Source: a bacterium
GTDB lineage: Bacteria; Zhuqueibacterota; Zhuqueibacteria; Oceanimicrobiales; Oceanimicrobiaceae
Direction: 5' to 3'
Length of the DNA stretch: 49,202 nucleotides
Assembly (NCBI GenBank): GCA_046757165.1
Contig: JBHHXT010000017.1
Location: 1 to 49,202, forward strand
Shown: piece after piece, positions 7,247 to 35,484 of the stretch
Numbering within the stretch: the first letter of the stretch is position 1
Layout: the number at the start of each line of letters is the position of its first letter
The notes under the pieces: generated by a model
Told to the model about the DNA's origin: nothing
What the model saw: only the letters and a program-made list of their open reading frames with translations
The model's database searches: none
Translations under genes and position numbers: made by a program

Positions 7247-7768
7247 GTGTTGGGCTTTACAAAGCAGGAACTCTATATTGTATGGTTCCTGATAGGCTCT
7301 TTGCTCGTTGGGGGCGGCGTCAAGATATATAAGGGTCATTTTCGTCAACCGACGGTTCCTCGAGTTCGAGAATCGTTCGTCGAAGAATTTGAAACCCGCG
7401 CCGCCCGGGTCAATGCAGGGGTTCGTGACACGCTCTCGGATGATTTGAACCTGAAGAGCGGCGCGGCAGAATTGGCGGGGTCGAATTCTGGTCGTCGCCC
7501 GGCGGTCGTTGAAAGTCAAACCGGTGCCCAGGATGGTCCGCAACCCAACCAGCAGTTCGTGTCAGGCTCGCGATTGAGAATTGACATCAATTCCGCCAGC
7601 ACCGCAGAGCTTCAGGAAATCCCCAAGATCGGACCCGTGCTAGCGGAAAGGATTGTTTCATATCGAGAGCAGAAAGGCAGGTTCAGAGACATTCAGGATT
7701 TGCTGCTTGTCAAGGGAATAGGAAAGAAAACTTTGGAGAAAATGGAGCCCTTTATTGCACTAAAATAA
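7247..7768 (+). CDS. comEA: ComEA-family helix-hairpin-helix DNA-binding protein
   Basis: N-terminal TM, flexible linker, IDINSAS..EL..IPKIGPVLA..IV.YR...G.F....L..VKGIG. Confidence 0.8.
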   Translation: MLGFTKQELYIVWFLIGSLLVGGGVKIYKGHFRQPTVPRVRESFVEEFETRAARVNAGVRDTLSDDLNLKSGAAELAGSNSGRRPAVVESQTGAQDGPQPNQQFVSGSRLRIDINSASTAELQEIPKIGPVLAERIVSYREQKGRFRDIQDLLLVKGIGKKTLEKMEPFIALK

Positions 7769-8703: not shown

Positions 8704-8733
8704 AGGGCTCAGTGCATGGAGGTTAGTTGGGTC

Positions 8734-9696
8734 ATGGCCCAGGAAGAGAATACTGGGATTCTTGGAATTAGTCTGGTTGATGATCAACTGAGAATCGTTG
8801 AAGGAAGAAAAGAATCCGCCAACGAGTTTCAAGTTACTCATTTAGCCCAGGGTCGGGTTCGGCAACCCTTCAATTTCGAGATATTTTCCGACCGGAATAT
8901 GCCTCGCCGTTTCGCTGAGGACATCACGCGGCTTTGCCAAACTCAGGACTTTGGGGTCAAGGATGTGGCGTTTTCGCTGGATTCCAGGATGGTGTTGGTC
9001 AAGAAGGTGGCCGTCGACCAGAAATTGGAAGCGAGCAGACTCGGCGAGCATATCGGCTGGGAGGTGGAGCAGTTTGCCATCTCCCCCATCCAGGAGTACG
9101 TCGTAGATTATGAGCCGCTTAATGGCAGCACAAACGGTCCTTTGAGCAGCATGCTGGTCGTTGTGGTTCGCAAAAAGGTCATTCGATTCTTAAAGCAGCT
9201 TTTTAAGCATACCGATTTAAGGTTAAGAGTGGTAGATGTTGATATTTTCTCGGCACAAAGAGCTCTGCAGTTGAATTATGATTACACCGAAACCGACAAG
9301 ATTTGCCTCATCAATGTTGCGGAACAGAAGGTTCATTTTACCATTCTCAAGGGAAAGAATTTCTTCCTGGCCCAGGATATTGCGCCGCCTCATAAAAGAA
9401 GCTTTGCCAGAAGCTCGGAATCAACGGCAAGGTCTATTTCGAAGGAGCTGCGCAGAATTATCTTAGACCATCAACTAGGCAAGAGCGTGGAGGACTTGAG
9501 TGAGATTTTCCTCTACGGAGAAGCGGTTGAGGACGGCGTTCTGGAAGGTCTGCAAAAAAGCTATGACTTGCGCATTGACCGCGCAAACCCGTTTAGAAAA
9601 ATAAAACTCCCTCCGCAAGCACAAGAGGATGTTAGCCAGGCGCGTACCGAGCGCTATATGATCTCGGTGGGCGCCGCACTCAGAGGGATACAATAG
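8734..9696 (+). CDS. pilM: PilM-like actin-fold pilus assembly protein
   Basis: LGISL...LRIVE, YVVDYE, LRVVDVDIFS, ISKELRR, IFLYG, ANPF, ISVGAALRG match the PilM pattern. Confidence 0.75.
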   Translation: MAQEENTGILGISLVDDQLRIVEGRKESANEFQVTHLAQGRVRQPFNFEIFSDRNMPRRFAEDITRLCQTQDFGVKDVAFSLDSRMVLVKKVAVDQKLEASRLGEHIGWEVEQFAISPIQEYVVDYEPLNGSTNGPLSSMLVVVVRKKVIRFLKQLFKHTDLRLRVVDVDIFSAQRALQLNYDYTETDKICLINVAEQKVHFTILKGKNFFLAQDIAPPHKRSFARSSESTARSISKELRRIILDHQLGKSVEDLSEIFLYGEAVEDGVLEGLQKSYDLRIDRANPFRKIKLPPQAQEDVSQARTERYMISVGAALRGIQ

Positions 9697-15347: not shown

Positions 15348-15351
15348 CGTC

Positions 15352-15368
15352 CTGGTATAGTTTTTGCA
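15352..15368 (+). promoter_or_regulatory. sigma-54 (-24/-12) promoter candidate
   Basis: CTGGTATAGTTTTTGCA: GG-N10-GC with TGGYA and TTGCA flanks. Confidence 0.6.
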
Positions 15369-15613
15369 AAAATGAAAGAATTCTTTTCTTGTGACTATAA
15401 CTAGATGGCGCTCGTGTCAAAACATGAAACATAGACAATATCGTGATACACAGACTGCCCCTACTTTAGTTCCTTTTGCGTTCCTGACGTTTACGCTTCT
15501 CCTCTTTGATCCAACACCAATAAATGTCAGCTTTCTTACATTAAATATCAGCAGATAGCATAACAGAGGGAGTTGGGTTCACAAAGATTGCGATCTTTGT
15601 TGCAACATTTTGG

Positions 15614-18600
15614 ATGGACGTTTTGATGATGAATCGGAGAGTCTATTTTCTTGCCGGATTGTTCGTGCTGTTCCTGAGCGCAGCATCCTTTGCCTCTACT
15701 GTGACTCCGGCAAACAGTACGGCCGGGGCGACCACGACGTATACCGTCGACTTTACGTTAACGGCTTTGGACAATCTGCCCGCTGACGGCTCCATAACCA
15801 TTACCTTTGGCAGTCTCGAGTATGATCTAACCGGGACCTTGACGGCAACGTCGCCCGATATCTCAGGCGGGTTCTTGGCGGCCACGCCTGGCGGCGGACA
15901 GTCCGTCACCTTCGTGCGGGACAGCACCGGCGCAGCTCTGCTCGGCGGCAACACGTATACGATTGTCTTTGGCAATGTGACCAATCCAACCACGGCGCAG
16001 TCCTATACGTTGACGGTAACGACCAGCGGCGGAAGCACGGACCCCAGCAGCTCCTACTCGATTACTGCAGACCAGTTGGACCATTTCACTGTTTCCGACC
16101 CCACGCCGTTCACACCAACCGCGGGCGTCAACTTTAGCGTGACGGTAGCGGCTTTCGACCAGTTCAACAACGCCACCGCCTTCAATGGCACGGTCAATTT
16201 GAGCGACAACACCACCACCTTGACGCCGACGAGTGTTGCGATGGCGGGCGTCTCCGTGGATGTGACAAATGCTCGCATCACCAAGGCCCAAAGTGGCGTT
16301 CAAATAACAGCCTCCGAAAGTGGGGGAGCCAGCGGCATATCCAGTGCCTTCACCGTGGATCCTGCGCCGTTGGACCATTTCACGGTCTCGGATCCAACCC
16401 CGGCCACTCCCACCGCGGGAGAAGACTTCACTTTCACGGTGGCGGCGTTTGACGAATTCAACAATGCCAGGACCTTCAGTGGCACGGTGAGCTTGACGGA
16501 TAACACCACGACACTGACACCGACCAGCGTGGCCATGGCCGGGACCTCTGTTTCGATCACCAATGGCCAAATTACGCAAGCGCAATCAGGGATTCAGATT
16601 ACGGCCTCAGAAGCCGGAGGGGCAACGGGAACCTCCAACTCCTTCACGGTGGTGGCTGCAGATATTGCGACCTTTGATTTGAGCGATCCCGGCACGCAGG
16701 AGGCCGGCGTTACCTTCAACGTGACCGTCTCGAACGCCCGCGATAGCTTTGGCAACCTGGCCTCCGGAACGATTGCGATTGATTTCAACGATAGCGATTC
16801 TCATCAGGTGCCAAACGGGGAGTCGCCTGTTTTGGCGGATATCGCGGTCGCCAACGGTTCTGGCACGGAAGCACAGCTTCTGTACTTGCGGGAATCCGGC
16901 GTCGTCTTGCTCGGCACCGTTGCCGCCACCTCTGCTACGGATAGCACACAGCCTTTCAGCGTCAACGCCGGCCTAATTCAAAATTTCTCCTTCCGCGATC
17001 CGGGTGCGCAGACCGCGGGCGTCGGATTCATTCTCACGGTGGAAAATGCCCGGGATGGCTTCAACAATCCTGCTGATGGCACGGTCGAAGTCAGCTTTTT
17101 CGACGCCGGCACCCATATCGCACCTGACGGTACGGCGCCAACCTTGCGAAACATCCTCGTTGGGAATGGATCCGGCAGCAACACGCAGGACTTGTTCCGG
17201 GCGGAAACCGGCCTCCTGCTGAGCGGTTCGGTGACCGCCACCGGGGCGTCGGATGATACACAGGCTTTTGATGTCACCGCCGCTACCCTCGCCGGTTTTA
17301 CGTTAGATACCCCGGGCACCCAAACTGCCGGCACAGAATTTACCCTATCCGTCTCCAACGCGGTTGACGCCTATGAAAATCCGGCGTCGGGGACCGTGCA
17401 GGTGAGCTTTAAAGACCAGCAACCCCATCTTGCGCCAAATCAAATTCCTCCGACGTTGCGGGATATCGCTGTCTCGGCAGGCGCCGGCAGCGCCATGCAA
17501 ACGTTGGTACTGGAGGAAAACAACGTGCAGCTCCGCGGCGACGCCGGCAATAGCGTCATCGACGACACCGGTAATTTCAATGTCACGGCGGGCAATTTGG
17601 CCGCGATTCAGATTCAAGTGGGGACGGCGGCCGGGGATACCACGGCTGTCGGTAACCAGAATCTGACGACGGGCAGCACATTGGCAATGCATGCTTCAGG
17701 GTTTGACATTTATGAGAACCATCGCGGCAGCGAAAGCGTGACCTGGGTGCTTGTTGGTACGAATATTGGCTCTTTGAATCCGGCAAGCGGTCCGAGCACC
17801 ACCTTGACGGCCACCACCCCGGGCACGGCCATTATTCAGGCAACCGAGACGAATTCCGGCCTGATCGATTTTACGGGCGCCATCGAGGTCAGCCTGGGTA
17901 ACGTGGTCAAGATCAGAATTCGCACCGCACCGAATAACGGCGGCAAGGAATTTGGTGACTCGACCCTGACCGCCGACGAAACCATGACTTTTTACGCCGC
18001 CGGCTACGACAACGAGGACAACTATATCAATGATTTCAGTGTTGACTGGCGCTCGCTCGGCGGACTGGAAAACATAAGTGGCAATAGCGGTAGGAGTTTC
18101 ACCTTCAGTCCAACCCTGATCGGGAGCGGACAGATTGTCGCAGACCATACCACTGCGACCGATGACACGACAGGCACGATTACGGTCACGCCTGGTTTGC
18201 CGGCCGGCACGGTGAATCTGACCCCCAGTGCGACGACCTTAGCGCCAACGGATACTTCACGAATAATATCATCACCGATAACCGATTCAGAAGGAAACCT
18301 GGTTGGGCCTGGAAGAGAGTTTGATGTGCAACTGGTCAATGGCCCCTTTGGCACCATCATAACCACGGATGCCAACCCGGGCAAAGCAGGGCATCAAATC
18401 AACACCGATGATAATAGCCAACTGGCTTTTGTTTTTCAAGCCGGAAATGAGGGCGGCACGCAGAATATCGTTGTGAGTAGTGTCGGCGGCGCGACCGGGA
18501 ACACCTCGATCACCATCGGCAGTTTGCGCATTCTCCGGGTTGAGAATGCGCCCGAGTTCGTGAGTCGGGGGCAGAGCGGGGTCACCAACCTTCAGATGAC

Positions 18601-21600
18601 AGTGGAAAATCTCAGTCCGTCATCGGCTACGAACCTGGCTCCTCAGTTGACGTTTAGCGGGGCGGGCCTTAGCTTTCAGCGCAAGGATTCTTTTACGGAC
18701 ATCCCTCCTGCTCCCGGGACACGCACGTTCACGTTTGATGTGGACGTGCTTCCTAATGCTGACTTAGGCTTGGTTACCATTGATGGCCTAATCAACGCGG
18801 AGATCAATAATACGCCTGTCTCTGCTCAAGGGGCTGTGACGCCGGACAGCGTGACCGTCCAGGATACGGCCCGGGTGAGTGTCGTCAGCGTGACAACCAC
18901 GCCGGACACGGTTGTGCAAGGCCGGCCGCCGGTAGATGTTACCGTCAGAGTCTCCAATCCCGCGCCCGCAGGGGTGTCTGCTGCCGCGGTACTCGACAAC
19001 ATCCAGTTGAAATTCACGCTCATAAAGGACGGCAGCGACAAAACCAACGAGTTTGTCGTGGTCGAAAAAGGAGGCATTCCCTCCACCATTGCTGCTGGCG
19101 CGACGGCGGATGTTGGTTTCACGGTCAGCGTGCGTGCCTCAGCAGATAGCGGGCAATACATTCTGGACGCCAACGCGTTTGGTCACGATATTAATTCTTC
19201 CGCCTTGACGATTCGAGACACGGATGGGGCATCGACCACCGATACCTGGTATGTAAAGGGCGCTGCCAGCCTGGAGATTTTGTCTCTGACTCCGATTCCG
19301 CAACCGGCCGTCCGCGCGGAACAGCCTACCGAATGGCGAGTGAGGATGCAGATTGAAAACAGCAGCCCGGACGACATCGACATCGATTTTAACAGTGTCA
19401 ACACCTACGTGAGATTTCGAATCGGAGCAAATGATGTGACCGGGGAGTACACCATCATCAATCCGGACTCTCTGAAGAACGCGGGAACGAATCGCCTGGC
19501 GAGTGGCGCCACAGACACGCTCGATTTCAGAATCGTCCAAACCGGATTCACGACGGGCACGGCGACCATACTGGGCAGTGTCGAAGGGATTGTCGTGGGC
19601 TCCGGCAGTCGCATTTCAGATGACACCAGCGATGACATCGGTCTGGGCTCTGTTCAGATCAACCCGGCCGACGCATCGGTTTTTGTGTTGACCACCAGTC
19701 CGCACACCTCTGTGCCGAATGCTTCTCCAGAAGTTGGGGTTGTGAACACAAACCAGGGTTTTAAGATAACGGTTGTCGTGATCAATGATCTGCCTGAGCC
19801 GGTGGACACGGTGGTTGTCAAGTTGAGCAGCAGCGTCAACAGCGGGGGCTCCACGATTTTGACGCCCCAGGATACGATTGCTTCCATTCCAGCCAATTCT
19901 AGCGGCTCTATCGATTTTGACATCATCGCTGCAGGTACTGCCAATCCTACTCAAGGGGAAACGTTTACGGCAGAGGTCTTGAACGCCACGGGCCAGCACA
20001 GCCGCCAGCCAGCGCCTATCGGTTCGCCGACAGACAACAACGTCCTTTTTCGCATCCAGGATCCCGCTGACTTGGTGGTGTCTTTGAGTATGGATACGGT
20101 TCAAACGGCGAACGATACGTTCGAGGTGTCGGCGACGGTCACGAACCTGGGGCAAGCAGATATCGACAATGCGGGACGTCTGGTGCTGACGGTGCCGGCC
20201 AGTTATCTTCTTGTCCCAGGCTCTGTTAACCCAGCCGCCTTTTCGTTGGACAACCCGGTGACGTGGGAGGTCATCGCTCCTGCCAGTGAAACCGTTAGCG
20301 ATACGTTCATCGTCAATATCAGCCAGGTCCCTAACGATGTCAACATCGCCGGCTTTGCGCAAGTCACGCGGGGCGTTGACTCGGTGCAAATCCGCACCTC
20401 GGACATTGGTCTTGCGATCGACGAGTTTCGAATCGTGTCGCCGGCCGGCGCGTTGGATGATACGCTCTCGAGTGAGCAAGAGTTTGCGGTGCAGGCCAAC
20501 ATCACCCGTACCGCCAGCATCGATTCTGTTCGTGCGACCTTGCAGCCTCCACCCGGCATTTCGCTGGCGCCGGGATTTACGAAGCTGACTAAGAGTTTGG
20601 GACCGGGCGTTACGAGCGCGAGTTGGAACCTGAAGGTCGCCGCAAACCAAACCGGGCAATCGACGCTAACGGTGCAGATGGTCGCCTTTGACCGCGGCGA
20701 AATCGCGGCCCAAACCTCGGCCAATATTGTGATTGAAACGGTCTTGAAGGGAAGGCTCCAGTTTGTTAGCTTCAGGTCAAACTTGCAGGGAAATCGTGCC
20801 TCGGTCAACCAGCAATTTCAACTTACCGCCGAGATCAGGAATTTCGGTGGCGCAGGCGTCACCCCCGGCCGCATTCGTCTAAACCAGGGGAATTCCGGCA
20901 TCATCAATCTGGATGCGGATGAAAGAACGTTTGATCCGGATGAGAATGTCGAGGTCGTTTGGAATGTACGGGCGCCGGCCACCCCAACCGCACGCGCCAC
21001 GATCACGGCGCGAATCGAGGAAATTCCAAAAGACGAGAACTCTGGACAGGAGGCCGCGCCCGCGACCCTCGAGCTGCCCCTTGAAGTCGAGACGGGTGAA
21101 TTTGGCGCCGCCACCATCAACAAGATATCGGTGCTATCCCCTCCGGGCGCTCAGGACGGCGTGATCTCAACCAACCAGCAGCTTACGGTCGAGGCAGAGG
21201 TGGGCTGGAATGATTTGGTGCAATTACAGGCTCAGATTAGCTGGGGGGATGCGGGCTATACCGTCCTGAACGGGACGCGAACCAAGAATATCACCCAGGG
21301 TCCCGTCACGACCGTACAGTGGGAATTGCGGGCCTCGCCAAACGCTGTTACGCAACACCATATCAAGGTCGAGGTGTTTGGAAATGATGCCAGCTCGGGT
21401 CAGCCGGTCAATGCTGTGCCCGATTCGATTCAGTCTACGGTCGTGGAGCGGGCAGACCTGACCCTGGTGGCTTCGATTTCGAGTCCTCCCTCTGCAATCG
21501 ACCGCATATTGACCGTGGGTCAGCAGTTTACCATCACCGCAGAGCTACAAAATACCGGCGCGGCCGGCCTGATTGGCGAAGACAATTTGAGGATCGAGCT

Positions 21601-22627
21601 GCCTCCAAGCTACACCATATCTGAACCCTCGATTAAGAGCGTGGCCCCTGACAATCAGGTGAGCTGGAGCGTCACAGCTCCGGACAATCCGACCAACCAG
21701 GTGGAAGACATCGTCATTTCGGTAGACCAGCAGAACTCAATTGACGAAAATACGGGCGACAACCCCCCTTTCGGGCCGTCGTCGGTCAAGATACCTGTTC
21801 AAACTCAGGCCGTCGGGCTCAATTTGACTCAACTCAATGACAGAAAACCGACCACGATTCCTCGCGGCGCTACGGACCAGCCTATTTTCGGCCTTCGGTT
21901 TGCGAACTCCAGCGATGATGATATCAATTTAGAGCGCATCAACCTGACGGTAGAAGATAACGACGGCAACGAAATCGCTCCGAATGCAGTTTTGTCGGGC
22001 CTGCGCGTGGTCGATTATGACAATTCCTCTGAGGTTTTTGCCACATTGGCCTCGATGCCAGCAAGTAATGCCATGCAGATTGACTTCAATCCCAATGTCA
22101 CGATTGCTGCCGGGCAAAACCGGTCGATTGAATTCCGCGTTGACCTCCTGGCTCAGTCAGATACGCCCAATTTCAGTCTGACGATCAGAGACCCCAACCG
22201 AAATGTCCTGGCAAGAAACACCGCCTCTGACAGCCTGGTGGCGATTCTTGATGAAGCGGGCTTTGAAATTCAAGGAGCGTTGAGTGCAGGCTCATCTGCA
22301 ATCATCGGGTCCGGATTTGCGGCGAGCTTTTTCAATTTCCCGAATCCATTTGGTCAAGGCGAGCAGACCATGTTCAATTACAGTCTGCCGCAAGACTCTC
22401 AGGTCACGCTAAGGATTTATACTTTGCTGGGTGAATTGGTGTGGACGACATCGTTCAGTGCCTCCGACGCTGAGGGCAAAGCTGGAAATCATGATGGTGT
22501 GAGCCTCAAAGCCATCACCTGGGACGGCAAGAACGGCAAGAGCCAGGAGGTTCTCAACGGCGTCTATATCGCTGTTCTGTCAACCGATTCCGATAAAGCG
22601 GTAACAAAAGTCGCAATTGCGAAATAA
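15614..22627 (+). CDS. Giant secreted multi-Ig-like repeat protein with C-terminal FlgD-Ig/T9SS type A-like sorting domain
   Basis: Signal peptide (..LSAASFA|S), T/S/V/G-rich beta repeats, C-terminal FPNPF...LRIYTLLGELV...WDGKN....NGVY.......KVAIAK. Confidence 0.85.
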   Translation: MDVLMMNRRVYFLAGLFVLFLSAASFASTVTPANSTAGATTTYTVDFTLTALDNLPADGSITITFGSLEYDLTGTLTATSPDISGGFLAATPGGGQSVTFVRDSTGAALLGGNTYTIVFGNVTNPTTAQSYTLTVTTSGGSTDPSSSYSITADQLDHFTVSDPTPFTPTAGVNFSVTVAAFDQFNNATAFNGTVNLSDNTTTLTPTSVAMAGVSVDVTNARITKAQSGVQITASESGGASGISSAFTVDPAPLDHFTVSDPTPATPTAGEDFTFTVAAFDEFNNARTFSGTVSLTDNTTTLTPTSVAMAGTSVSITNGQITQAQSGIQITASEAGGATGTSNSFTVVAADIATFDLSDPGTQEAGVTFNVTVSNARDSFGNLASGTIAIDFNDSDSHQVPNGESPVLADIAVANGSGTEAQLLYLRESGVVLLGTVAATSATDSTQPFSVNAGLIQNFSFRDPGAQTAGVGFILTVENARDGFNNPADGTVEVSFFDAGTHIAPDGTAPTLRNILVGNGSGSNTQDLFRAETGLLLSGSVTATGASDDTQAFDVTAATLAGFTLDTPGTQTAGTEFTLSVSNAVDAYENPASGTVQVSFKDQQPHLAPNQIPPTLRDIAVSAGAGSAMQTLVLEENNVQLRGDAGNSVIDDTGNFNVTAGNLAAIQIQVGTAAGDTTAVGNQNLTTGSTLAMHASGFDIYENHRGSESVTWVLVGTNIGSLNPASGPSTTLTATTPGTAIIQATETNSGLIDFTGAIEVSLGNVVKIRIRTAPNNGGKEFGDSTLTADETMTFYAAGYDNEDNYINDFSVDWRSLGGLENISGNSGRSFTFSPTLIGSGQIVADHTTATDDTTGTITVTPGLPAGTVNLTPSATTLAPTDTSRIISSPITDSEGNLVGPGREFDVQLVNGPFGTIITTDANPGKAGHQINTDDNSQLAFVFQAGNEGGTQNIVVSSVGGATGNTSITIGSLRILRVENAPEFVSRGQSGVTNLQMTVENLSPSSATNLAPQLTFSGAGLSFQRKDSFTDIPPAPGTRTFTFDVDVLPNADLGLVTIDGLINAEINNTPVSAQGAVTPDSVTVQDTARVSVVSVTTTPDTVVQGRPPVDVTVRVSNPAPAGVSAAAVLDNIQLKFTLIKDGSDKTNEFVVVEKGGIPSTIAAGATADVGFTVSVRASADSGQYILDANAFGHDINSSALTIRDTDGASTTDTWYVKGAASLEILSLTPIPQPAVRAEQPTEWRVRMQIENSSPDDIDIDFNSVNTYVRFRIGANDVTGEYTIINPDSLKNAGTNRLASGATDTLDFRIVQTGFTTGTATILGSVEGIVVGSGSRISDDTSDDIGLGSVQINPADASVFVLTTSPHTSVPNASPEVGVVNTNQGFKITVVVINDLPEPVDTVVVKLSSSVNSGGSTILTPQDTIASIPANSSGSIDFDIIAAGTANPTQGETFTAEVLNATGQHSRQPAPIGSPTDNNVLFRIQDPADLVVSLSMDTVQTANDTFEVSATVTNLGQADIDNAGRLVLTVPASYLLVPGSVNPAAFSLDNPVTWEVIAPASETVSDTFIVNISQVPNDVNIAGFAQVTRGVDSVQIRTSDIGLAIDEFRIVSPAGALDDTLSSEQEFAVQANITRTASIDSVRATLQPPPGISLAPGFTKLTKSLGPGVTSASWNLKVAANQTGQSTLTVQMVAFDRGEIAAQTSANIVIETVLKGRLQFVSFRSNLQGNRASVNQQFQLTAEIRNFGGAGVTPGRIRLNQGNSGIINLDADERTFDPDENVEVVWNVRAPATPTARATITARIEEIPKDENSGQEAAPATLELPLEVETGEFGAATINKISVLSPPGAQDGVISTNQQLTVEAEVGWNDLVQLQAQISWGDAGYTVLNGTRTKNITQGPVTTVQWELRASPNAVTQHHIKVEVFGNDASSGQPVNAVPDSIQSTVVERADLTLVASISSPPSAIDRILTVGQQFTITAELQNTGAAGLIGEDNLRIELPPSYTISEPSIKSVAPDNQVSWSVTAPDNPTNQVEDIVISVDQQNSIDENTGDNPPFGPSSVKIPVQTQAVGLNLTQLNDRKPTTIPRGATDQPIFGLRFANSSDDDINLERINLTVEDNDGNEIAPNAVLSGLRVVDYDNSSEVFATLASMPASNAMQIDFNPNVTIAAGQNRSIEFRVDLLAQSDTPNFSLTIRDPNRNVLARNTASDSLVAILDEAGFEIQGALSAGSSAIIGSGFAASFFNFPNPFGQGEQTMFNYSLPQDSQVTLRIYTLLGELVWTTSFSASDAEGKAGNHDGVSLKAITWDGKNGKSQEVLNGVYIAVLSTDSDKAVTKVAIAK
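16076..16663 (+). repeat. Two tandem 98-aa (294-nt) intragenic repeats
   Basis: LDHFTVSDPTP...TVAAFD.FNNA...DNTTTLTPTSVAMAG...AQSG.QITASE.GGA.G repeated at 16076 and 16370. Confidence 0.9.
16664..17590 (+). repeat. Three tandem ~104-aa intragenic repeats (second type)
   Basis: PG.Q.AG..F...V.NA.D...N.A.GT..V.F.D...H..P....P.L..I.V..G.G repeated three times. Confidence 0.8.
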
Positions 22628-22635
22628 ACTGCGAT

Positions 22636-24591
22636 ATGACTGTGTTTCGACTCACAAAAGTGTTGACTCTATCGTTTCTGATTTTTATAATATTAGCGTT
22701 GGTCAAGGGCGTGACTGCTCAGCCGGCTGATGGCGGCCGCTCGAGTCTCTTTTCCTCCGCAGGTGTCGGTGCGCGGGCTCTTTCAATGGGGGGCGCTTTT
22801 GTGGCACTTTCTGATGATCCCACTGCTGTCTACTGGAATCCGGCCGGACTCGACTTTATCCAGAAAAAGGGCGCCACGTTCTTTTACTCGAGCTTGAATT
22901 TTGGCACGAGCTACAATTTCATCGCTGGCGTCTGGCCGACGCTCGAGTTTGGAACCGTGGGCATTGGCTGGGCCAGGATTGTAACAGACGGTGTGCAAGC
23001 GCGTGATTCACAAGCGAACCCCATCGGCGCGCCAGGTGATTTTAGCACGGATCAAATCATTTTCTCCTATGCCAAGCAACTCAGGAAGCGCACAGATTCG
23101 CTGAGTGTTGGCGTTAGTTTCAAGATTGAGAAGCTCAACTTCTCGTTTAGCAATCTGTCGGACACAGGGGTGGGCTTCGATTTTGCTCTGCTTTACAAAC
23201 CCGGATTTAGCAGCGGTTTCTTGAGGAATATCTCTTTGGGTGTAAACATTCAAAATGCGCTGACTTCAAAGGTGCGCCTTAGAACCGCGTCCGAATCCTC
23301 CCCGGTCAACTTCAAGGTCGGACTGGCAAAGACGTTTACGATTGGTGAAAACCGTAGCCGCTTTCGGCTGCTGTTTGATCTGAACCAAACAGAGAACGGT
23401 GTCGGGACCTACCATATCGGGACGGAGTACGCATTTCAGGACCGCGCCAACTTGCGCATGGGCTTCAACAGTGGCCAGATAGCTCTCGGCGCCGGCGCCT
23501 CCTATCACAATATCAGAATAGATTACAACTTTGGCAAATTCTTTGATGGGGCGGACTTTGCTTCAAATCATCGCTTTTCGGTGACCATTGCTTTCGGAAA
23601 GGGCAAGACGAGACGCAGGCGGGAGTTGGAAGCTGCGCGCCGGCAAGAAATCCACCTGGCGATCGCGCAAGAACTCTGGATGAAGAAAAAGATTGAATTC
23701 AATACCCACATAGCGAGCGGCAAACGACAATTCAGAAATGTCGACTATCAGGAAGCGTATGTGCAGTTCAAGAGTGCCCGAAGTGTAGCGGACACGTTGG
23801 AGGTGATGTCCAGTGGCTACGACAGAGATCATACCGGAGAGGACCGCGTGCAAATCGCCACGGCTGCGCAAGATACGGCCAGGACGTGGATAGAACGAAC
23901 AGACCGCAAGTGGAAAGAGCAGCGCGATGAGGAGAAGAAGAGACTCTATCGCGAAGAACGCCAGCGAGTTGAAGAGGCCGCAATCAGGAAACTCAATGAC
24001 CTCATCGTCGAGCACAGGGAGAAGGGTGATGGATTCTTCAAGAATGGAGACTATGCCGAAGCAATCAATGAGTGGCAACTTGTTGTCAACGCCATAACAG
24101 AGAGCACGGTCCAGAACCTTCCAGAGAATTTTGCCAACATCAAGAGGCAGGTTAACAAGGACCTGGCGACGGCAAGAAAATACCTCGCAGCCGAGCGACA
24201 AGAACGAGAAAGAAGAGTTCAGCGGCTGAGTTTCGATGACCATTTCAATCGCGGCTTGCGGGATTATGCGAGCAAGGATTGGGAGCGTGCCGCTGCTGCC
24301 TTTAAAAAAGCGTTGGACATCAATCGAAATCATGCCGATGCAAGGAAATGGTATGACAAAGCTTATGCGCGCTCCCGAGCGACGGTGAAGCAGATGCCGC
24401 AGCAACTGCGGGCAAAATACGCCCGCTCAGTGGCATTGTACAGGCAAGGCAAATATGCAGAATCTTTGGACCTGCTAATGGAAATCCGGGATGATAAACG
24501 TTACAAAGAGCAGCGTTATAACAAGCGAATCCTGGATCGCATTGATCTGGTCGAAGAAAAAATAGCTCAGAAGAAAAGGCGAAACCAATAA
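22636..24591 (+). CDS. PorV/PorQ-family outer-membrane beta-barrel with C-terminal coiled-coil/TPR extension
   Basis: Signal peptide, GARALSMGGAFVALSDDPTAVYWNPAGL signature, barrel ends HRFSVTIAF, then about 330 aa charged helical TPR-like region. Confidence 0.8.
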   Translation: MTVFRLTKVLTLSFLIFIILALVKGVTAQPADGGRSSLFSSAGVGARALSMGGAFVALSDDPTAVYWNPAGLDFIQKKGATFFYSSLNFGTSYNFIAGVWPTLEFGTVGIGWARIVTDGVQARDSQANPIGAPGDFSTDQIIFSYAKQLRKRTDSLSVGVSFKIEKLNFSFSNLSDTGVGFDFALLYKPGFSSGFLRNISLGVNIQNALTSKVRLRTASESSPVNFKVGLAKTFTIGENRSRFRLLFDLNQTENGVGTYHIGTEYAFQDRANLRMGFNSGQIALGAGASYHNIRIDYNFGKFFDGADFASNHRFSVTIAFGKGKTRRRRELEAARRQEIHLAIAQELWMKKKIEFNTHIASGKRQFRNVDYQEAYVQFKSARSVADTLEVMSSGYDRDHTGEDRVQIATAAQDTARTWIERTDRKWKEQRDEEKKRLYREERQRVEEAAIRKLNDLIVEHREKGDGFFKNGDYAEAINEWQLVVNAITESTVQNLPENFANIKRQVNKDLATARKYLAAERQERERRVQRLSFDDHFNRGLRDYASKDWERAAAAFKKALDINRNHADARKWYDKAYARSRATVKQMPQQLRAKYARSVALYRQGKYAESLDLLMEIRDDKRYKEQRYNKRILDRIDLVEEKIAQKKRRNQ

Positions 24592-24604: not shown

Positions 24605-27600
24605 TTGTTCACAAACGTCGAAAAACAACAACTAAAAGTTCCTGCGCATATAGACTATCTGGGCGACCTTCGCGACTTCGTCACGCAGATAGGCAAGAAA
24701 CACAGGTTCTCAGACAAAGTCGTCAACGCCTTTAAGCTCGCGGTTGATGAGGCGGCAACCAACATCATTCGCCATGCCTACCGGGATACGGACGGCTTGA
24801 TAACCATTCGAGCCATTGTCAAGAAGAATAGTCTGACTTTGTCGATCATCGACCAGGGTAAGTATTTCGATCCGAATCGGGTAGAGAATCCAGACCTCAA
24901 CCGCTACATCGATATCGGCAAGAAAGGAGGCCTGGGGATCTTTATCATGCGCAAGCTCATGGACGAGATCGAGTACAGCAGAACCGAGGAAGGCAACGAG
25001 CTGCGCATTACAAAATATCGCGATCAAGCCGAAAAGAAAGGAATCTTCAAGTCCGCCGTTTCTTCCATTCCTTTTTCGATCAAAGTCAAGTACTTTTTCC
25101 GCGCCATTGCCATCATTGCAACGCTCATAACCGTTGGCTATCTTTATTTTTTTTTCAAGGTAGATGAGAAGGTATTGTCGAAGTTTTTGTATGACTGCGA
25201 GGAAATCAACGCGAGCATTGTCACCCGAGTCATCTCCACGGTCAGCTTGAATCCTGATGAGCCCCTGGATGATGAGTTTTTCACCACCCTGGAAGAACAG
25301 TACGCGGAGATTCGTAAGATAGCCATTGAAGACTCGACCTCATATATCATCTATAGTACCGATACAAACGAATATGTTCGGGGTTTGTTCAGACCGGCCA
25401 AGATCGAAGTGGTCCGGAATCGTTTTCTTGGCGCCGGCGCCAAACTGTACAGATATAAGCTGAACAACGAGACGGTTTACGAATTCGAGAGCCCAATAGT
25501 GATCCGGCCTGGTAGACAGATCTTTGGCACGGCTCATATCGTTTTCACAGCGGTTTCTGCAGAAAGCCAAATTGCTGTGAGTCGACGCAGCAATCTAAAT
25601 CTTGCGTTGCTCATCCTCGGCCTGAGCTGCGTGGGTGTCGCCCTCATCATCTACCTGGTCATGAATCCTTTCCGTAAGCTCTCGGATTGGGTCAGGAACC
25701 TTGACCACGGACAAATCGAAGATGAGATGGATATTGACGCCTCCACCGAGATTGGGGAAATTGCCAAGGCGTTCAGCGATATCACCCACAAATTTCGGGA
25801 TTCACAAAAGAGGGTCGCTCAACAGGATCGGTTGGAGCGCGAGATGCGCGTGGCCAAGGATATTCAGCAAACCCTGTTGCCGATGTCGGTGCCAGAACTG
25901 GAAGGCTACCAGATTTCCGCGCATTATGAGGCGGCGACAGAAGTGGGCGGTGACTACTATGACTTTGTTGAAGTCGACCAGGACACGTGGGGAATCGCTG
26001 TCGCCGATGTTTCCGGCAAGGGTGTCCCGGGTTCGATGGTCATGACCATGATTCGGACCGTGCTGCGCACCGAGGCTCGTGGCGTGAAGGACGCGGCGGA
26101 TGTGCTCACGCGCGTCAATGATTTTGTCAGTAATGATATTAAAAAGGGCATGTTTGTCACGGTCTTCTACCTGATTATTGATTCGAAGAAGCGGAGCCTC
26201 AATTTTGCCAGTGCCGGCCACAACCCGATGATTCTGCGACGTGGCAGTACCAACCAAACCTACTACCTCAACCCGAAGGGATTTCCGATCGGTGTGAAGC
26301 TTCCGGACAAGGACTATTTCAAGAATTATATTGAATCAGAGACCATTCGGCTTGCCAAGGACGATATCTTACTGCTCTATACAGATGGAATTACAGAGGC
26401 GATGAACTCGAGGCGTGCGCTGTTTGGGGAAGAGCGTCTGCAGAAGGTCATGAGTGACTCCGGCCACTTGTCTGCAGAGGATTTCGTTGAGAGTCTGAAG
26501 GAAACTATTTACTCGTTCACCGAGGGTCAGCCCCAGTCCGACGATATCACTTTGGTGGCGATCAAGGAAAAGTCGACGCGTGAGGAAGACGAGCTCCGAA
26601 GGGCAAAGGAGGTCCATAGTCTCGTCTGCAATGGCCGGAGCGTTCGGGACGCGTGCCAGGAGGTGAATCTTGCAGTGTCGACTTACTATAACAAATACAA
26701 GAAAGTCTTTGAAGCGCAAGGAACAGATGGTTTCGAAATTGACGAAGTGGCTTCTGTCGAGTCGAAGCACCTGAGTATTGAGCAGAAGACCAGGATTTTT
26801 GACGTCATTGCCCATCATCCGGAGTACGGCGCCGGCAGAATCAAGGAAGAGCTCAATACCAAAAGGTATGACTTTACGGTCATCAGCGAAAGGAAGGTCT
26901 ATGAGGAGCTTGTTCGCAATCGATTGAATACACGGGCTTTACGTGAAGCTTATATCAATCGTGCCAGGAAGGGCAAGCGACGACCCAAGCCACCAGGCAC
27001 ACCGTATCTGACACTCCACGGTGAGATCGTGGTGCAGCATTCGAATATTGAGGATTACACCGCCGAAGAAGAGACGAAGGCACCGGAGTCGGGAGCGGGT
27101 GCTGAGGCGGGTCCGGCCGGGCGAACCGATGATGAACGCAGCGAGTCCATTGAAGTCGACAGTGTGATAATCACAGAGTTTGAGTCCGAGTCCCTGATAC
27201 ACAACCCTCTGGACGAAACCCTGTCCAATCCGCTGGCAACGGATCAAGATAAGAAAGATTCATCCGAAGATAATAGAGATGGGATCTCTGGTGGCCCCTC
27301 CGGAGCCGAGCCTGAAGTCGTGGTACCTAAAGCCGGAATCGAGGTCGGTGAGCATGACCCCGAGGCCACTTCCGACGATGTACCCTTTGAGGCGTTAGAG
27401 GCCATCGAGGGAACTTCCCTATTAGAGGACTTTACATTTGAAGAGCTGTTTGACAGCGGCTCGCAGATGGCTGATGAGGATGATTTCGACGAGGGCTCGG
27501 ACGAGGGTCAAGGCTCGAGCGTTGAATCGCAAGCGACCACCGCCTTCGATGCAGACGTCGAAGCACAAGCCGAGACACATGTAGAAGATGAGTCGCAGTC

Positions 27601-28375
27601 TCCTCCTGAGGTTCAGGAACAGGCGGGTCAATCGCAGCCGCAGGCGAGCGCTTCAGAATGCTCAGAAGTTAGCGCAGCAGATTCAGACGTTGCCGCGTTC
27701 TCCGTTGAGGAGCTGGTAGATCGAGATCGGGAGTCAGATTCCGAAAAGCAAGGAGACTTTGTACAAGCGACGGCCGAAGAGGGGCCCGACCTGCGCCGTC
27801 CACACGTGGCAGATGAGGATGAGGACACCGTATCTTTCTCGGACTTGATTCAAGCGATCGACGATGAAATCGTTTATGTAAGCAAACCTGCTCGTCAGCA
27901 AGATAAAGTCGCAGTGGAGTCCCGTGAGTTAAGCCCGTCAGCCGGGAAGCCGAAGCCGTTAGATGGGGATGAAGAGCCCTATTTCCATAAAAGCGAGCCA
28001 GGCGCAAATGGGGACCAGGACAAAGAGACGATATTGATTAACGGAATTAAGTATTACAAGAACAACGATTACGCCAAAGCGATCGAAGAGTTTAAGAAGG
28101 TGATCGATGTTTATCCCGACTATAAGGAGGCTCACAGCATCTTAGGAAACGCCTATTTTAGAAATAGAATGTACAATGAAGCGGCCCTTGAATATCAAAG
28201 GGTGAAGGAAATCGATCCCAACGACATCACGGCTTATGAGAATATGGGCGTGATTTATGCGAATCTCGGCGACTATAAACAAGCTCTGGGAGAGTGGAAA
28301 AAGGTGATGGAACTCAATCCGGATCGGATGGACATCAAGGATAAGATTAAGAAAGCCCTGAGAATGATAAATTGA
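24605..28375 (+). CDS. Membrane fusion: RsbW-type anti-sigma kinase, 2 TM sensor, HAMP, SpoIIE/PP2C phosphatase, HTH, acidic linker, TPR
   Basis: EAATNIIRHAY, DQG, GGLGIFIM (HATPase); two TMs; EIGEIAKAF (HAMP); EVGGDYYD, ADVSGKG, YTDGITE, DDIT (PP2C); C-terminal TPRs. Confidence 0.85.
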   Translation: MFTNVEKQQLKVPAHIDYLGDLRDFVTQIGKKHRFSDKVVNAFKLAVDEAATNIIRHAYRDTDGLITIRAIVKKNSLTLSIIDQGKYFDPNRVENPDLNRYIDIGKKGGLGIFIMRKLMDEIEYSRTEEGNELRITKYRDQAEKKGIFKSAVSSIPFSIKVKYFFRAIAIIATLITVGYLYFFFKVDEKVLSKFLYDCEEINASIVTRVISTVSLNPDEPLDDEFFTTLEEQYAEIRKIAIEDSTSYIIYSTDTNEYVRGLFRPAKIEVVRNRFLGAGAKLYRYKLNNETVYEFESPIVIRPGRQIFGTAHIVFTAVSAESQIAVSRRSNLNLALLILGLSCVGVALIIYLVMNPFRKLSDWVRNLDHGQIEDEMDIDASTEIGEIAKAFSDITHKFRDSQKRVAQQDRLEREMRVAKDIQQTLLPMSVPELEGYQISAHYEAATEVGGDYYDFVEVDQDTWGIAVADVSGKGVPGSMVMTMIRTVLRTEARGVKDAADVLTRVNDFVSNDIKKGMFVTVFYLIIDSKKRSLNFASAGHNPMILRRGSTNQTYYLNPKGFPIGVKLPDKDYFKNYIESETIRLAKDDILLLYTDGITEAMNSRRALFGEERLQKVMSDSGHLSAEDFVESLKETIYSFTEGQPQSDDITLVAIKEKSTREEDELRRAKEVHSLVCNGRSVRDACQEVNLAVSTYYNKYKKVFEAQGTDGFEIDEVASVESKHLSIEQKTRIFDVIAHHPEYGAGRIKEELNTKRYDFTVISERKVYEELVRNRLNTRALREAYINRARKGKRRPKPPGTPYLTLHGEIVVQHSNIEDYTAEEETKAPESGAGAEAGPAGRTDDERSESIEVDSVIITEFESESLIHNPLDETLSNPLATDQDKKDSSEDNRDGISGGPSGAEPEVVVPKAGIEVGEHDPEATSDDVPFEALEAIEGTSLLEDFTFEELFDSGSQMADEDDFDEGSDEGQGSSVESQATTAFDADVEAQAETHVEDESQSPPEVQEQAGQSQPQASASECSEVSAADSDVAAFSVEELVDRDRESDSEKQGDFVQATAEEGPDLRRPHVADEDEDTVSFSDLIQAIDDEIVYVSKPARQQDKVAVESRELSPSAGKPKPLDGDEEPYFHKSEPGANGDQDKETILINGIKYYKNNDYAKAIEEFKKVIDVYPDYKEAHSILGNAYFRNRMYNEAALEYQRVKEIDPNDITAYENMGVIYANLGDYKQALGEWKKVMELNPDRMDIKDKIKKALRMIN

Positions 28376-28409: not shown

Positions 28410-28438
28410 TTGACTTTTTTGCGATTTTCTATTATATT
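28410..28438 (+). promoter_or_regulatory. sigma70-type promoter upstream of the STAS gene
   Basis: TTGACT-17 nt-TATATT; AGGAG RBS before ATG 28485. Confidence 0.65.
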
Positions 28439-28484: not shown

Positions 28485-29186
28485 ATGGAAGGCATACATG
28501 TGTCTGTGGAAAAAGTTGGTCCGAATCAGAATATTTCGGTCATCAAAGTGGGAGGCTACATTGACACCACGACCTCTGCGGAACTAGAGCATGCGCTATC
28601 GAACCTTCTGAAGGCTCATAGTTATAGAATCATTATCGACCTGGGAAACGTCGATTATATTAGCAGCGCTGGCTGGGGTATTTTCATCAGTGAAATAAAG
28701 GGGATTCGTGAGAAAGCGGGGGACCTGAAATTGGTCCGCATGATCCCCGATGTGTATGAGGTATTTGAACTGCTGGAATTTCATTATATTCTCAAGGCTT
28801 TTGACACCCTGGAGGAAGCGATTGCTGATTTCGACAGCGAGAGTGCAGGCTCGGGGGTCGCGTTACCTCCCTACGAATCTGAACAGACTGGCGACGAAAA
28901 GTCTGCTGCCACTTCTCAGGAGGTTAAGACTGACGTCGCGCAGGTGGAGACGCGTTATGAGCCCTCATCAGATGATGCGTATCTGGAGACGATCGAAGAA
29001 AAACTGCGCCAGATCATTATTGAGAAGCCGGACGCAGGGATGTTCCAGTTGATCAGGAGTCTGAATACACCTCGGTTCGGCAACCTGAAGTTGGGCTGGT
29101 TTGAAATGCGCAAGTATTTGAAGCAGTTGAACCTGGAGTCAAAAAAGAAACGGGTTGAGTATTTCAAGCAGAATACTTTTGGTTGA
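28485..29186 (+). CDS. STAS anti-sigma factor antagonist with C-terminal HTH-like domain
   Basis: VGGYIDTTT, IIIDLGNVDYISSAGWG (phosphoacceptor Ser motif), VYEVFELL; about 120-aa extension. Confidence 0.88.
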   Translation: MEGIHVSVEKVGPNQNISVIKVGGYIDTTTSAELEHALSNLLKAHSYRIIIDLGNVDYISSAGWGIFISEIKGIREKAGDLKLVRMIPDVYEVFELLEFHYILKAFDTLEEAIADFDSESAGSGVALPPYESEQTGDEKSAATSQEVKTDVAQVETRYEPSSDDAYLETIEEKLRQIIIEKPDAGMFQLIRSLNTPRFGNLKLGWFEMRKYLKQLNLESKKKRVEYFKQNTFG

Positions 29187-30305: not shown

Positions 30306-31409
30306 ATGAATTCGACTTCCGCTGAACTGAAGGCCTTGCTGCGGCTCTCTGCGGTTCCCGGGATTGGGCCAAACCGAATCCGGTCGCTGGTCGGACATCT
30401 CAAATCTGCTGTTCGGGTTCTCAACGCCTCCCGTACCGAATTGACTCAGGTTGAGGGCATCGACACCAAGACTGCAGAGAGTATTCTGCGCTCGGACGGC
30501 CTGACATTTGCCGATGAGCAGCTACGCAGGATGGAGAAGTGTGGTGCGCACGTGGTCACGTTCTGGGACAAGGAGTATCCCGAGCTGCTGAAACGGATTT
30601 ACGACCCTCCCGCGTTTCTGTTTGTCAGAGGAGAGTTCAAGTCAGAAGACAAGTACGCAATTGCCGTGGTGGGGACGCGTCAGCCGACAAACTATGGCCG
30701 AATCGTCGCGGAGAAGTTGACGCAGGAGCTATCTCAGAGCGGTTTGACTATCGTCAGCGGGCTGGCTTATGGCATCGACACCAATGCGCATGCCAACGCG
30801 CTCAACAATGGCGGACGCACCATTGCCGTGCTTGGCTCCGGAGTTGATAACATCTATCCTGCCGAGAATACTCGCCTGGCCGAGAAAATTGCAAATGGCG
30901 GTGCAGTCATTTCCGAGTACCCCATGGGTGCGGAGCCAGACCGGAGCAATTTCCCACGCCGAAATCGCATCATCTGCGGGCTGAGCCTGGGGGTTTTGAT
31001 CATCGAGGCCGGCAGCAAGAGCGGCGCATTGATCACCGCCATGAATGCCCTGGACCAGAACCGAGAAGTTTTTGCTGTTCCCGGCAACATAGACAGTCCA
31101 AAGAGTATCGGCACGAATGATTTGATCAAGCAGGGCGCCAAATGTGTTATGTGCGTCGATGACATTATCGAGGAACTTTCGGTGCAGTTGCAGCCGATTC
31201 TCGAGAACGGAACCCATGACAGGGAGCCAACGCACCTCACTGAAGGAGAAAAGACGATCTTCGAGCACCTTTCTCACGAACCGCTGCACGTTGACGATAT
31301 CGCGAAGCGGTCGGGCCTGTCGACGTCGAAGGTTCTTTCGCTTTTGTTGACCCTGGAATTGAAAAATGTCGTGAGGCAGTTGGCAGGCAAGATGTTTGTG
31401 AAGATTTAA
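30306..31409 (+). CDS. dprA: DNA-processing protein DprA
   Basis: DPPAFLF, AVVGTR, VSGLAYGID, FPRRNRII, SGALITA, C-terminal winged helix. Confidence 0.95.
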   Translation: MNSTSAELKALLRLSAVPGIGPNRIRSLVGHLKSAVRVLNASRTELTQVEGIDTKTAESILRSDGLTFADEQLRRMEKCGAHVVTFWDKEYPELLKRIYDPPAFLFVRGEFKSEDKYAIAVVGTRQPTNYGRIVAEKLTQELSQSGLTIVSGLAYGIDTNAHANALNNGGRTIAVLGSGVDNIYPAENTRLAEKIANGGAVISEYPMGAEPDRSNFPRRNRIICGLSLGVLIIEAGSKSGALITAMNALDQNREVFAVPGNIDSPKSIGTNDLIKQGAKCVMCVDDIIEELSVQLQPILENGTHDREPTHLTEGEKTIFEHLSHEPLHVDDIAKRSGLSTSKVLSLLLTLELKNVVRQLAGKMFVKI

Positions 31410-31460: not shown

Positions 31461-31544
31461 GGAGGGCTAGTCCTAATTGGTAAGGCAGCGGTCTTGAAAA
31501 CCGCCGGGTTCACGCCCTTGGGGGTTCGAGTCCCTCGCCCTCCG
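31461..31544 (+). tRNA. tRNA-Ser(TGA)
   Basis: GGAGGGC/GCCCTCC acceptor stem, anticodon arm GCGGT-CTTGAAA-ACCGC, long variable arm, GGTTCGAGTCC; CCA not encoded. Confidence 0.95.
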
Positions 31545-31584
31545 CTTGAGAATTGAGTCCTGATTTTCGACCATAGTTGTTTAC

Positions 31585-31671
31585 GGAGAGGTGGCCGAGC
31601 GGCTGAAGGCACAGGTTTGCTAAACCTGCGTAGGGGCAACTCTACCGAGGGTTCGAATCCCTCCCTCTCCG
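31585..31671 (+). tRNA. tRNA-Ser(GCT)
   Basis: GGAGAGG/CCTCTCC acceptor stem, CAGGT-TTGCTAA-ACCTG, long variable arm, GGTTCGAATCC. Confidence 0.95.
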
Positions 31672-31782
31672 CATTTTTTTGTCCAGTTCTGGAGTCTCAA
31701 TTCTTTGCACGCCAAAGTCACACGGGGAATTGTTTTTGCATTTTTTGCAAAAGATCAAAAACAATAACACCAATAACATAAA

Positions 31783-33490: not shown

Positions 33491-33561
33491 TGGGGTGTCG
33501 TCCAACGGCAGGACACGCGACTCTGGATCGTGTAATCGGGGTTCGAATCCCTGCACCCCAG
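33491..33561 (+). tRNA. tRNA-Gln(CTG)
   Basis: TGGGGTG/CACCCCA acceptor stem, CGCGA-CTCTGGA-TCGTG, GGTTCGAATCC. Confidence 0.95.
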
Positions 33562-33831
33562 CTGCCTATTTTGGGTCGCGCACAGGAAGATTCCTACGCA
33601 CGAAGCGGAAAACCTTGACCTTTCGGCGACCCTCCTTTTGACCCCAACCCCCCATTGCAATCTTTCCCCGGTTCCTTCACCCACCGGACTCTCAATGCGA
33701 AGATGACCCGTCTTGAGACCACAGCTGAGAGTTTTTTCCTCGCAGGTGGCTCTATTAAGGCAGAGACGGGCTTGAGCCCCCTTGGCTAAAGACGCCAGGG
33801 CAAAGTGAATACATAATTCAAGGAGGAGAAA

Positions 33832-35397: not shown

Positions 35398-35484
35398 CAA
35401 TAACGAGTTTCAATTGGAATCTGCCCGAATTTGGCAACTGACGTGCTTCGTAGATCGTTGGAAGCAACCCCGAGACATTGGAAG

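Follow-up and report, generated by a model that had tools for sequence, protein, structure and literature searches.

The question raised by this locus is why a membrane-bound bacterial signalling protein carries what looks like the DNA-binding head of a transposase, and what that head may do there. The stretch analysed (the window) comprises 49,202 nucleotides of contig JBHHXT010000017.1 (assembly GCA_046757165.1) from a member of the Oceanimicrobiaceae, phylum Zhuqueibacterota, and the protein is a fusion of an RsbW-type kinase with a PP2C/SpoIIE phosphatase. A preliminary description made from the sequence alone had noticed, right after the phosphatase, a bipartite helix-turn-helix (HTH) of the IS481 pattern followed by a basic patch, and had read it as a domesticated transposase region in a membrane-tethered DNA-binding regulator. 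The analysis placed the bipartite HTH at about residues 662-786, directly behind the SpoIIE domain (residues 459-654) and in an intact frame, and the basic patch at residues 786-795. The host gene and the parts of the module are as follows; named relatives carry the labels KSB1, Zhuqueibacterota or Calditrichaeota, and we take the phylum to be KSB1/Zhuqueibacterota on this basis.

24605..28375, + strand: host gene, a single intact open reading frame (ORF) of 1256 amino acids (aa).
26600..26950, + strand: IS481-transposase-like bipartite HTH without a DDE domain; aa 666-782, equal to positions 2-115 of 284 in NF033577.
26579..26719, + strand: HTH1, aa 659-705, with a one-residue insertion (N696) in the recognition helix that occurs in the derived KSB1 clade only.
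26720..26776, + strand: linker between the HTH units, aa 706-724, acidic here and basic in transposases.
26777..26917, + strand: HTH2, aa 725-771, with acidic E767 and E768 in the recognition helix; homologous to the tails of STAS proteins.
26933..26971, + strand: an extra helix 4 with R780, aa 777-789.
26960..26989, + strand: basic patch, aa 786-795, variable in sequence and basic on average.
26987..27037, + strand: conserved Lys-Pro-Pro-Gly-Thr-Pro motif and a short hairpin, aa 795-811, outside the transposase alignment.

The segment matched the NCBIfam IS481 model NF033577 with an E value of 5.1e-9 (2.3e-7 within the whole protein), and this was the top NCBIfam family; all 34 aligned relatives matched it as well, the best with an E value of 4.6e-17. 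From 30 loci with IS481-like matches, we also hand-picked 11 IS481-like transposases belonging to this phylum and combined them into a profile. hhalign aligned the module to this profile with a probability of 97.5 and an E value of 6e-12, with 113 columns in register, and the window segment scored 32.3 bits on it, whereas the top shuffle reached 8.7 (1000 shuffles, 814 scored). Pfam was weak for this copy, HTH_32 giving an E value of 5e-4, under its cut-off. AlphaFold2 predicted the module alone as two three-helix units with a flexible linker and a fourth helix (pLDDT 81, pTM 0.52). Fold searches with this model gave nothing significant (Foldseek E values of at least 0.59, VIA Z of at most 5.6), the bipartite heads of Pax6, TnsB, MuA, Tc3 and SETMAR being among these non-significant matches. 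A sequence search of the PDB with the module returned chance matches only, to an acetyltransferase and Lin0861 (best E value 0.0048), and the ESM Atlas returned HTH_32 and HTH_28 clusters only. Thus, of the two comparisons by which the IS481 pattern was to be judged, the profile one was significant and the structural one was not.

No DDE domain follows the segment: the match stops at model position 115 of 284, with 36 bits against a cut-off of 224. Terminal inverted repeats were likewise not found, since the region 26300-27400 contains six short pairs at chance level, none of which brackets the segment. Both absences agree with the preliminary description. R780 in helix 4 is invariant in all 64 aligned modules that lack the catalytic domain, and stands at that column in two of the 11 transposases. 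The idea that the Pro-Gly-Thr-Pro hairpin is a vestige of the strand that precedes the first catalytic Asp in IS481 was considered and rejected, because the hhalign alignment ends short of it and the spacing is off by one residue.

The module is present in 158 of the 167 genomes of the phylum (this and the other genome-wide tallies take in the unpublished genomes G158 and G162, on which none of the claims hangs by itself), and in 104 of the 105 that are at least 90% complete. Across 123 aligned full-length proteins, the mean share of the commonest residue was 0.73 in HTH1, 0.78 in HTH2 and 0.75 in the hairpin, compared with 0.80 in the kinase, 0.82 in the phosphatase, 0.34 in the periplasmic domain and 0.24 in the acidic linker. 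It stands directly after PP2C in 80 of 80 loci, and its GC content is about that of the neighbouring domains. Upstream lie a PorV-like gene and a giant gene in 64 of the 65 loci with enough upstream DNA, and downstream a STAS gene with a tail in 60 of the 64 with enough downstream DNA, so that a variable location indicative of mobility was not seen among them. IS481-like elements do exist in the phylum, where 66 of the 167 genomes match the model at E values of 1e-20 or lower, and an insertion-sequence scar confined to one gene, recent or neutral, could have come from such an element. Nevertheless, this explanation is practically out of the question because of the presence of the module in nearly all genomes and its conservation near that of the catalytic domains; the fixed position, the lack of terminal repeats and the ordinary GC content also speak against it. 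The view of the segment as a domesticated IS481 N-terminal region was therefore upheld by the profile match, the missing catalytic domain, the conservation and the fixed synteny.

The kinase/phosphatase fusion with the module also turns up in records named Calditrichia, Krumholzibacteriota, Eisenbacteria and Spirochaetota, and in P0170, P0172, P0190, P0202 and P0168 (P0190 is named Krumholzibacteriota) three STAS domains are fused after the module. A profile of the module gave 444 matches in 1.84 billion representatives, the best 150 of which were members of the same family, fragments, STAS proteins, tandem-HTH proteins and GT2 glycosyltransferases. None of the 42 matched proteins scanned against NCBIfam (best five families per protein) matched the IS481 model beyond position 120, and the others were classed by their other domains. 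The GT2 glycosyltransferases (CelA/PgaC-like; P0201, P0204, P0239, P0257 and others) carry an N-terminal tandem pair of IS481-like heads, which are strongly basic and share helix 4; P0201 is named Microgenomates, and P0204 bears the unchecked label Bathyarchaeia. In a quick tree search (75 rows, 129 columns, unrooted), all 38 phosphatase-borne modules fell on one side of a branch with an SH-aLRT of 99, and the glycosyltransferase-borne modules were mixed among the transposases. The transposase that looked most alike, L061, reached a probability of only 58.7.

The module is homologous to the IS481 head, has lost the catalytic domain, is old and is under purifying conservation. As judged by sequence comparison, it very probably originated from an IS481-type transposase. 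The tree is consistent with one capture, which would have been made long ago by an ancestor of the kinase/phosphatase fusions and in the direction from transposase to enzyme; the glycosyltransferase modules possibly represent a separate capture. It is improbable that the module goes back instead to an ancient two-HTH domain of cellular origin, either related to the IS481 head by common descent or even its source. Such a history would suit the absence of transposases from the best 150 of the 444 profile matches, the weak and generic fold matches, the short unrooted tree and the helix-4 arginine, which all modules without catalytic domain share with so few transposases. However, the in-register match over both HTH units and the linker to the best of all NCBIfam families speaks against it, and it fits poorly with basal members being more transposase-like than derived ones, with the intermingling of glycosyltransferase modules and transposases in the tree, and with the limitation of the fusion to a few phyla whereas IS481 is a broadly spread family.

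The remaining parts of the host protein are the following.

24605..28375, + strand: domain order RsbW-type kinase, transmembrane (TM) helix, periplasmic domain, TM helix, HAMP, PP2C/SpoIIE, IS481-like module, acidic linker, TPR.
24641..25015, + strand: HATPase_c_2 (RsbW/SpoIIAB-type) kinase, aa 13-137, by Pfam, with intact N, G1 and G2 boxes.
25094..25666, + strand: two TM helices predicted by hydropathy (about aa 164-185 and 330-354), flanking a variable periplasmic domain.
25646..25774, + strand: HAMP domain, aa 348-390, E value 1.8e-4, under the Pfam cut-off in this copy.
25979..26566, + strand: SpoIIE/PP2C phosphatase, aa 459-654, with invariant metal-binding D468, D594 and D646/D647.
27050..28009, + strand: acidic linker, poorly conserved, 28% Asp plus Glu.
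28040..28354, + strand: C-terminal TPR repeats, aa 1150-1240, by Pfam.

The kinase and the phosphatase are thus joined in a single chain with intact motifs in both, the N, G1 and G2 boxes and the PP2C aspartates being intact across the 123 full-length proteins. No receiver domain was found among 23 Pfam families; a TM-periplasmic-TM-HAMP arrangement occupies the centre instead. Under the standard topology read from the hydropathy, the regions past HAMP, including the IS481-like module, would be cytoplasmic. The same genome encodes a paralogue of 1926 aa (L002; G000:C6:187-5967, - strand) in which HTH1 is missing, HTH2 is acidic and the acidic linker is very long. Eight further representatives are like it in lacking HTH1 and having an acidic HTH2; all nine of these paralogues retain helix 4, and most retain the hairpin motif. 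A second membrane HAMP-SpoIIE phosphatase of 893 aa, without kinase or HTH module, is encoded in the window at 35431-38112 (+ strand), and could be a further enzyme on the same STAS proteins. In one relative (L041, G089:C5) the tblastn matches are split near the starts of the kinase/phosphatase gene and the STAS gene, probably by assembly indels.

The module is not confined to the enzyme. The gene behind it encodes an anti-anti-sigma-like STAS protein, STAS-A, a likely substrate.

28410..28438, + strand: sigma-70-type promoter-like site before STAS-A; a similar site in 62 of 72 relatives.
28485..29186, + strand: STAS-A, 233 aa, with the candidate phospho-serine S61.
28989..29174, + strand: basic C-terminal tail of STAS-A, homologous to HTH2 and helix 4 of the module by hhalign.

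We take S61 to be the probable phosphorylated serine by analogy with the RsbV motif. The tail of STAS-A (its last ~60 residues) aligned with the module in hhalign with a probability of 98.3 and an E value of 1.5e-14, and with the transposase heads at 94.5. Pairwise BLASTP of the module against STAS-A gave nothing, so that this homology is visible by profiles only. A profile of the STAS tails matched 166 of the 167 genomes, mostly three times per genome. The three matches in the genome studied here are the enzyme, STAS-A and a second STAS protein, STAS-B (G000:C7:31473-32192, - strand), and the serine motif is present in both STAS-A and STAS-B. The net charge of the tails lies between +3 and +9 in 19 of 20, whereas that of the matching part of the enzyme is about +1. 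These relationships suggest, at the level of sequence, one module common to the enzyme and its likely substrates rather than a single odd domain. P0229 and P0231 are STAS proteins with two HTH2 copies split by a charged helical stretch. A complex prediction for the module and the STAS-A tail scored 0.01 against a mark of 0.32, and no verdict was drawn from it.

STAS-B stands in a polysaccharide setting. At the 30 loci fetched of 107 matches (L171/L172; L173-L201), with gene labels assigned by eye, a wza-like gene comes next in all 30, a wzc-like gene is present in 28, and a glycogen-synthase-like gene precedes STAS-B in 27. All 30 of the 300-base regions upstream of STAS-B contain a sigma-54 -24/-12 pattern, and ~120 bases further up a tandem imperfect-palindrome motif was found in 25 of 30 (at most 2 in shuffles). 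This genome contains rpoN and 47 sigma-54 activator domains, and the tandem motif is probably an activator enhancer.

Several DNA-facing features of the module differ between the enzyme and the transposases. Of the 12 rows from the derived KSB1 clade, 10 have the insertion at 696 in recognition helix 1, against none of the 63 others. Arg at 691 is present in none of the 17 KSB1 rows, compared with all 26 glycosyltransferase rows and six of the 11 transposases, whereas Glu at 768 occurs in 36 of 38 phosphatase rows and in none of the 37 transposase or glycosyltransferase rows. The mean charge of the linker between the HTH units is -3.9 in the derived clade against +2.3 in the 11 transposases, and the net charge of the module there is -0.2 against +8.5. 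Upstream of the giant-gene cluster and of STAS-A, no conserved operator was detected beyond the promoter boxes. All 20 regions ahead of the giant gene lacked the motif found upstream of STAS-B; with one mismatch allowed, it occurred in three of 80 phosphatase loci, where it was scattered.

When PP2C and the module were modelled together by AlphaFold2, pTM rose to 0.83 from 0.52 for the module alone. Since PP2C makes up only 252 of the 407 residues (62%), the model seems to fix the position of most of the module against the phosphatase. The fold matches listed for this model were PP2C/RsbU-type structures only. In a mean-field coupling analysis several top pairs joined PP2C positions 582, 585 and 636 to HTH2 positions 766-770, at 305 rows and an effective depth of 73, where kinship can produce such pairs.

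From these data the following scheme may be drawn. The N-terminal two-HTH head of an IS481 element, without its catalytic domain, would have been captured by an ancestor of the membrane kinase/phosphatase fusions. The host protein would sense something in the periplasm, and HAMP would relay the signal. As suggested by the intact motifs, the gene order and the analogy with SypE and its substrate SypA, the opposing kinase and PP2C activities would set the phosphorylation of the two STAS proteins. In the lineage of the window, HTH2, helix 4 and the hairpin are predicted to pack on the phosphatase, where they might help to regulate it or to address the HTH2-bearing STAS substrates. The basic HTH2 tails of the STAS proteins would then be the likelier nucleic-acid-binding output, in the manner of the STAS protein CapS, on surface-protein and polysaccharide genes. 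A protein-contact role is preferred over a DNA-reader role in the derived clade because of the insertion in recognition helix 1, the acidic linker, the acidic recognition helix 2, the paralogues without HTH1 and the lack of an operator. The STAS tails are preferred as output because they are basic, while the enzyme part is nearly neutral, and because CapS provides a precedent. We give about an even chance to this reading as a whole, in which the domesticated IS481 head is a protein-contact domain on a SypE/SypA-like switch and the basic STAS tails are the likelier DNA-binding output.

Several observations weigh against this protein-contact reading. Recognition helix 1 is conserved (Y694 95%, Y695 94%, K697 99%, Y698 97%, K699 95%), as is R745 (95%), and DNA contact would account for this just as well. 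In basal KSB1 members and in other phyla, HTH1 resembles that of transposases and the net charge stands at +3.8 and +8.0, so that DNA may well have been bound by the ancestor of the fusion, whatever holds for this copy. Charge is also a coarse criterion, two of the 11 real transposase heads being net negative. The packing argument uses one global score of a model. No STAS-tail operator was identified, the motif of the polysaccharide operon being more simply an enhancer for one of the 47 sigma-54 activators, and with a single HTH per tail, the STAS proteins would have to dimerize in order to bind a site. Some of these points, together with the cytoplasmic position, the confident prediction of both HTH units and the mean charge of +4.9 in the basic patch, favour what the preliminary description had proposed, namely that the enzyme-borne bipartite HTH binds specific DNA as a membrane-tethered regulator, maybe sharing sites with the STAS tails. 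We regard this as somewhat unlikely, since it conflicts with the helix-1 insertion, the acidic linker and acidic residues 767 and 768, with the acidic paralogues without HTH1 and with the finding that, promoter boxes apart, no common motif was seen ahead of the giant-gene cluster and STAS-A; the HTH of CapK, the sole tested analogue, is also dispensable. Still more doubtful is a module that binds DNA or RNA non-specifically as an input or locator (nucleoid proximity, damaged DNA) and so tunes the kinase/phosphatase balance. The conserved basic and aromatic patches, the missing operator and the activation of the related kinase type CapK by single-stranded DNA (ssDNA), via another surface, would agree with it, but the module is net neutral or acidic in the derived clade, and the periplasmic domain and HAMP already give an input.

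The protein-contact reading can be extended to a broader picture, which we put forward as a speculation that is unlikely to hold in full. In it, a partner-switching network without a sigma factor would be fixed across the phylum, and the IS481 head would be common to the membrane kinase/phosphatase and two STAS proteins. Phosphorylation would switch on or off the ability of the STAS tails to bind specific DNA sequences, such as the tandem motif upstream of the polysaccharide operon, and the module of the enzyme would address the STAS proteins or hold DNA at the membrane. The capture of the same head in tandem pairs by membrane glycosyltransferases would make it a recurrently exapted controller of envelope-polymer synthesis.

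The gene cluster to which the host gene belongs begins with the following features.

15353..15367, + strand: sigma-54 -24/-12 promoter-like site at the head of the gene cluster, in 14 of 20 loci (shuffle mean 0.025).
15614..22627, + strand: giant exported protein of 2337 aa with a T9SS type A sorting tail (TIGR04183 above cut-off).
22636..24591, + strand: PorV/PorQ-family outer-membrane protein with a TPR extension (NF033709 above cut-off).

In 11 of 19 relatives (L202-L221) an exported protein of 150-210 aa is encoded between an upstream TPR gene and the giant gene, and none is encoded at 15348-15613 of the window. The genes obg, dprA and gltX come after STAS-A, as in many relatives. The window also contains helix-hairpin-helix (presumably ComEA-like), PilM-like and DprA genes (7247-7768, 8716-9696 and 30306-31409), and two tRNA-Ser genes and one tRNA-Gln gene at 31461-31672 and 33491-33562. 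No sigma-factor gene was found among the 31 window ORF segments scanned. Elsewhere in the genome there are two FliA-like sigma factors, labelled by eye (G000:C14:13363-14253, - strand, and C2:78880-79812, + strand), one of them in a flagellar cluster; although not linked to this locus, they might be targets of the kinase domain.

Eukaryotes offer well-known cases of domesticated DNA-binding heads of transposases, such as Pax, CENP-B and SETMAR. For prokaryotes, the available sections of a review on exaptation name Cas1, Cas9 and Xre/RHH regulators and never IS481 (PMC8987985), and the fusion described here does not appear in them or in those of PMC10045372. We found no description of the module in the open-access literature, supplements aside. 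The module is real and ancient, and it is thus a so far undescribed addition to a switch of known type: the IS481 head is fixed across nearly all genomes of a phylum, where three members of one switch bear it, and it recurs on a second, unrelated protein family.

Compared with IS481 transposases, whose head corresponds in Pfam to HTH_28/HTH_23 plus HTH_32, the module has the same two HTH units and linker, in register with the N-terminal part of the model. It differs in lacking the DDE domain, with a score far under the model cut-off, and terminal repeats, in its fixed chromosomal position, in the acidity of its linker and recognition helix 2, and in having an additional helix 4 and a hairpin; the host gene is not an IS481 element. 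With the RsbU-RsbV-RsbW and SpoIIE-SpoIIAA-SpoIIAB systems the locus shares the three domain types with intact motifs, whereas here the kinase and phosphatase are fused and membrane-bound, HTH modules are added, and the ORF segments of the window include no sigma-factor gene.

The CapK/CapS system is similar in that an anti-sigma-like kinase and its STAS substrate each carry an HTH. According to the available part of PMC13373217, CapK is an HTH-STAS-GHKL protein activated by ssDNA, CapS has a winged HTH, and both flank immune operons; CapS binds DNA through its STAS-linked HTH, and deletion of the HTH of CapK was without effect. The same part describes CapK without phosphatase or membrane sensor, and the word 'transposase' is absent from the main text. 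Here, in contrast, the kinase is fused to a phosphatase and bound to the membrane, STAS is joined to an IS481-like HTH2 instead of a winged HTH (a likeness drawn from the descriptions), and the neighbours are T9SS-type surface genes, obg, dprA and gltX instead of immune operons.

SypE of Vibrio fischeri belongs to the response regulators and has a receiver domain at its centre. In passages of PMC10120452, it combines a serine kinase and a phosphatase in one protein and acts on the STAS protein SypA, with no known sigma-factor target. Passages of PMC4517449 give sypA as the first gene of the syp polysaccharide locus, which is activated by SypG, sigma-54-dependent according to a cited title, and state that the output through which STAS proteins of the SypA type act on polysaccharide production is unknown. 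The present system likewise fuses kinase and phosphatase, and it is STAS-B, not the STAS-A of the window, that heads a sigma-54 polysaccharide operon with wza next. The host protein is nevertheless not a member of the SypE/SypA type because a membrane sensor, TM-sensor-HAMP, stands in the place of the receiver. In addition, HTH domains are not described for SypE or SypA in these passages, whereas here the IS481-like module is on the enzyme and on both STAS proteins. Since the position of STAS-B equals that of sypA in its operon, with a domain added, the HTH2 tail offers a concrete candidate output for the question posed by SypA-type STAS proteins.

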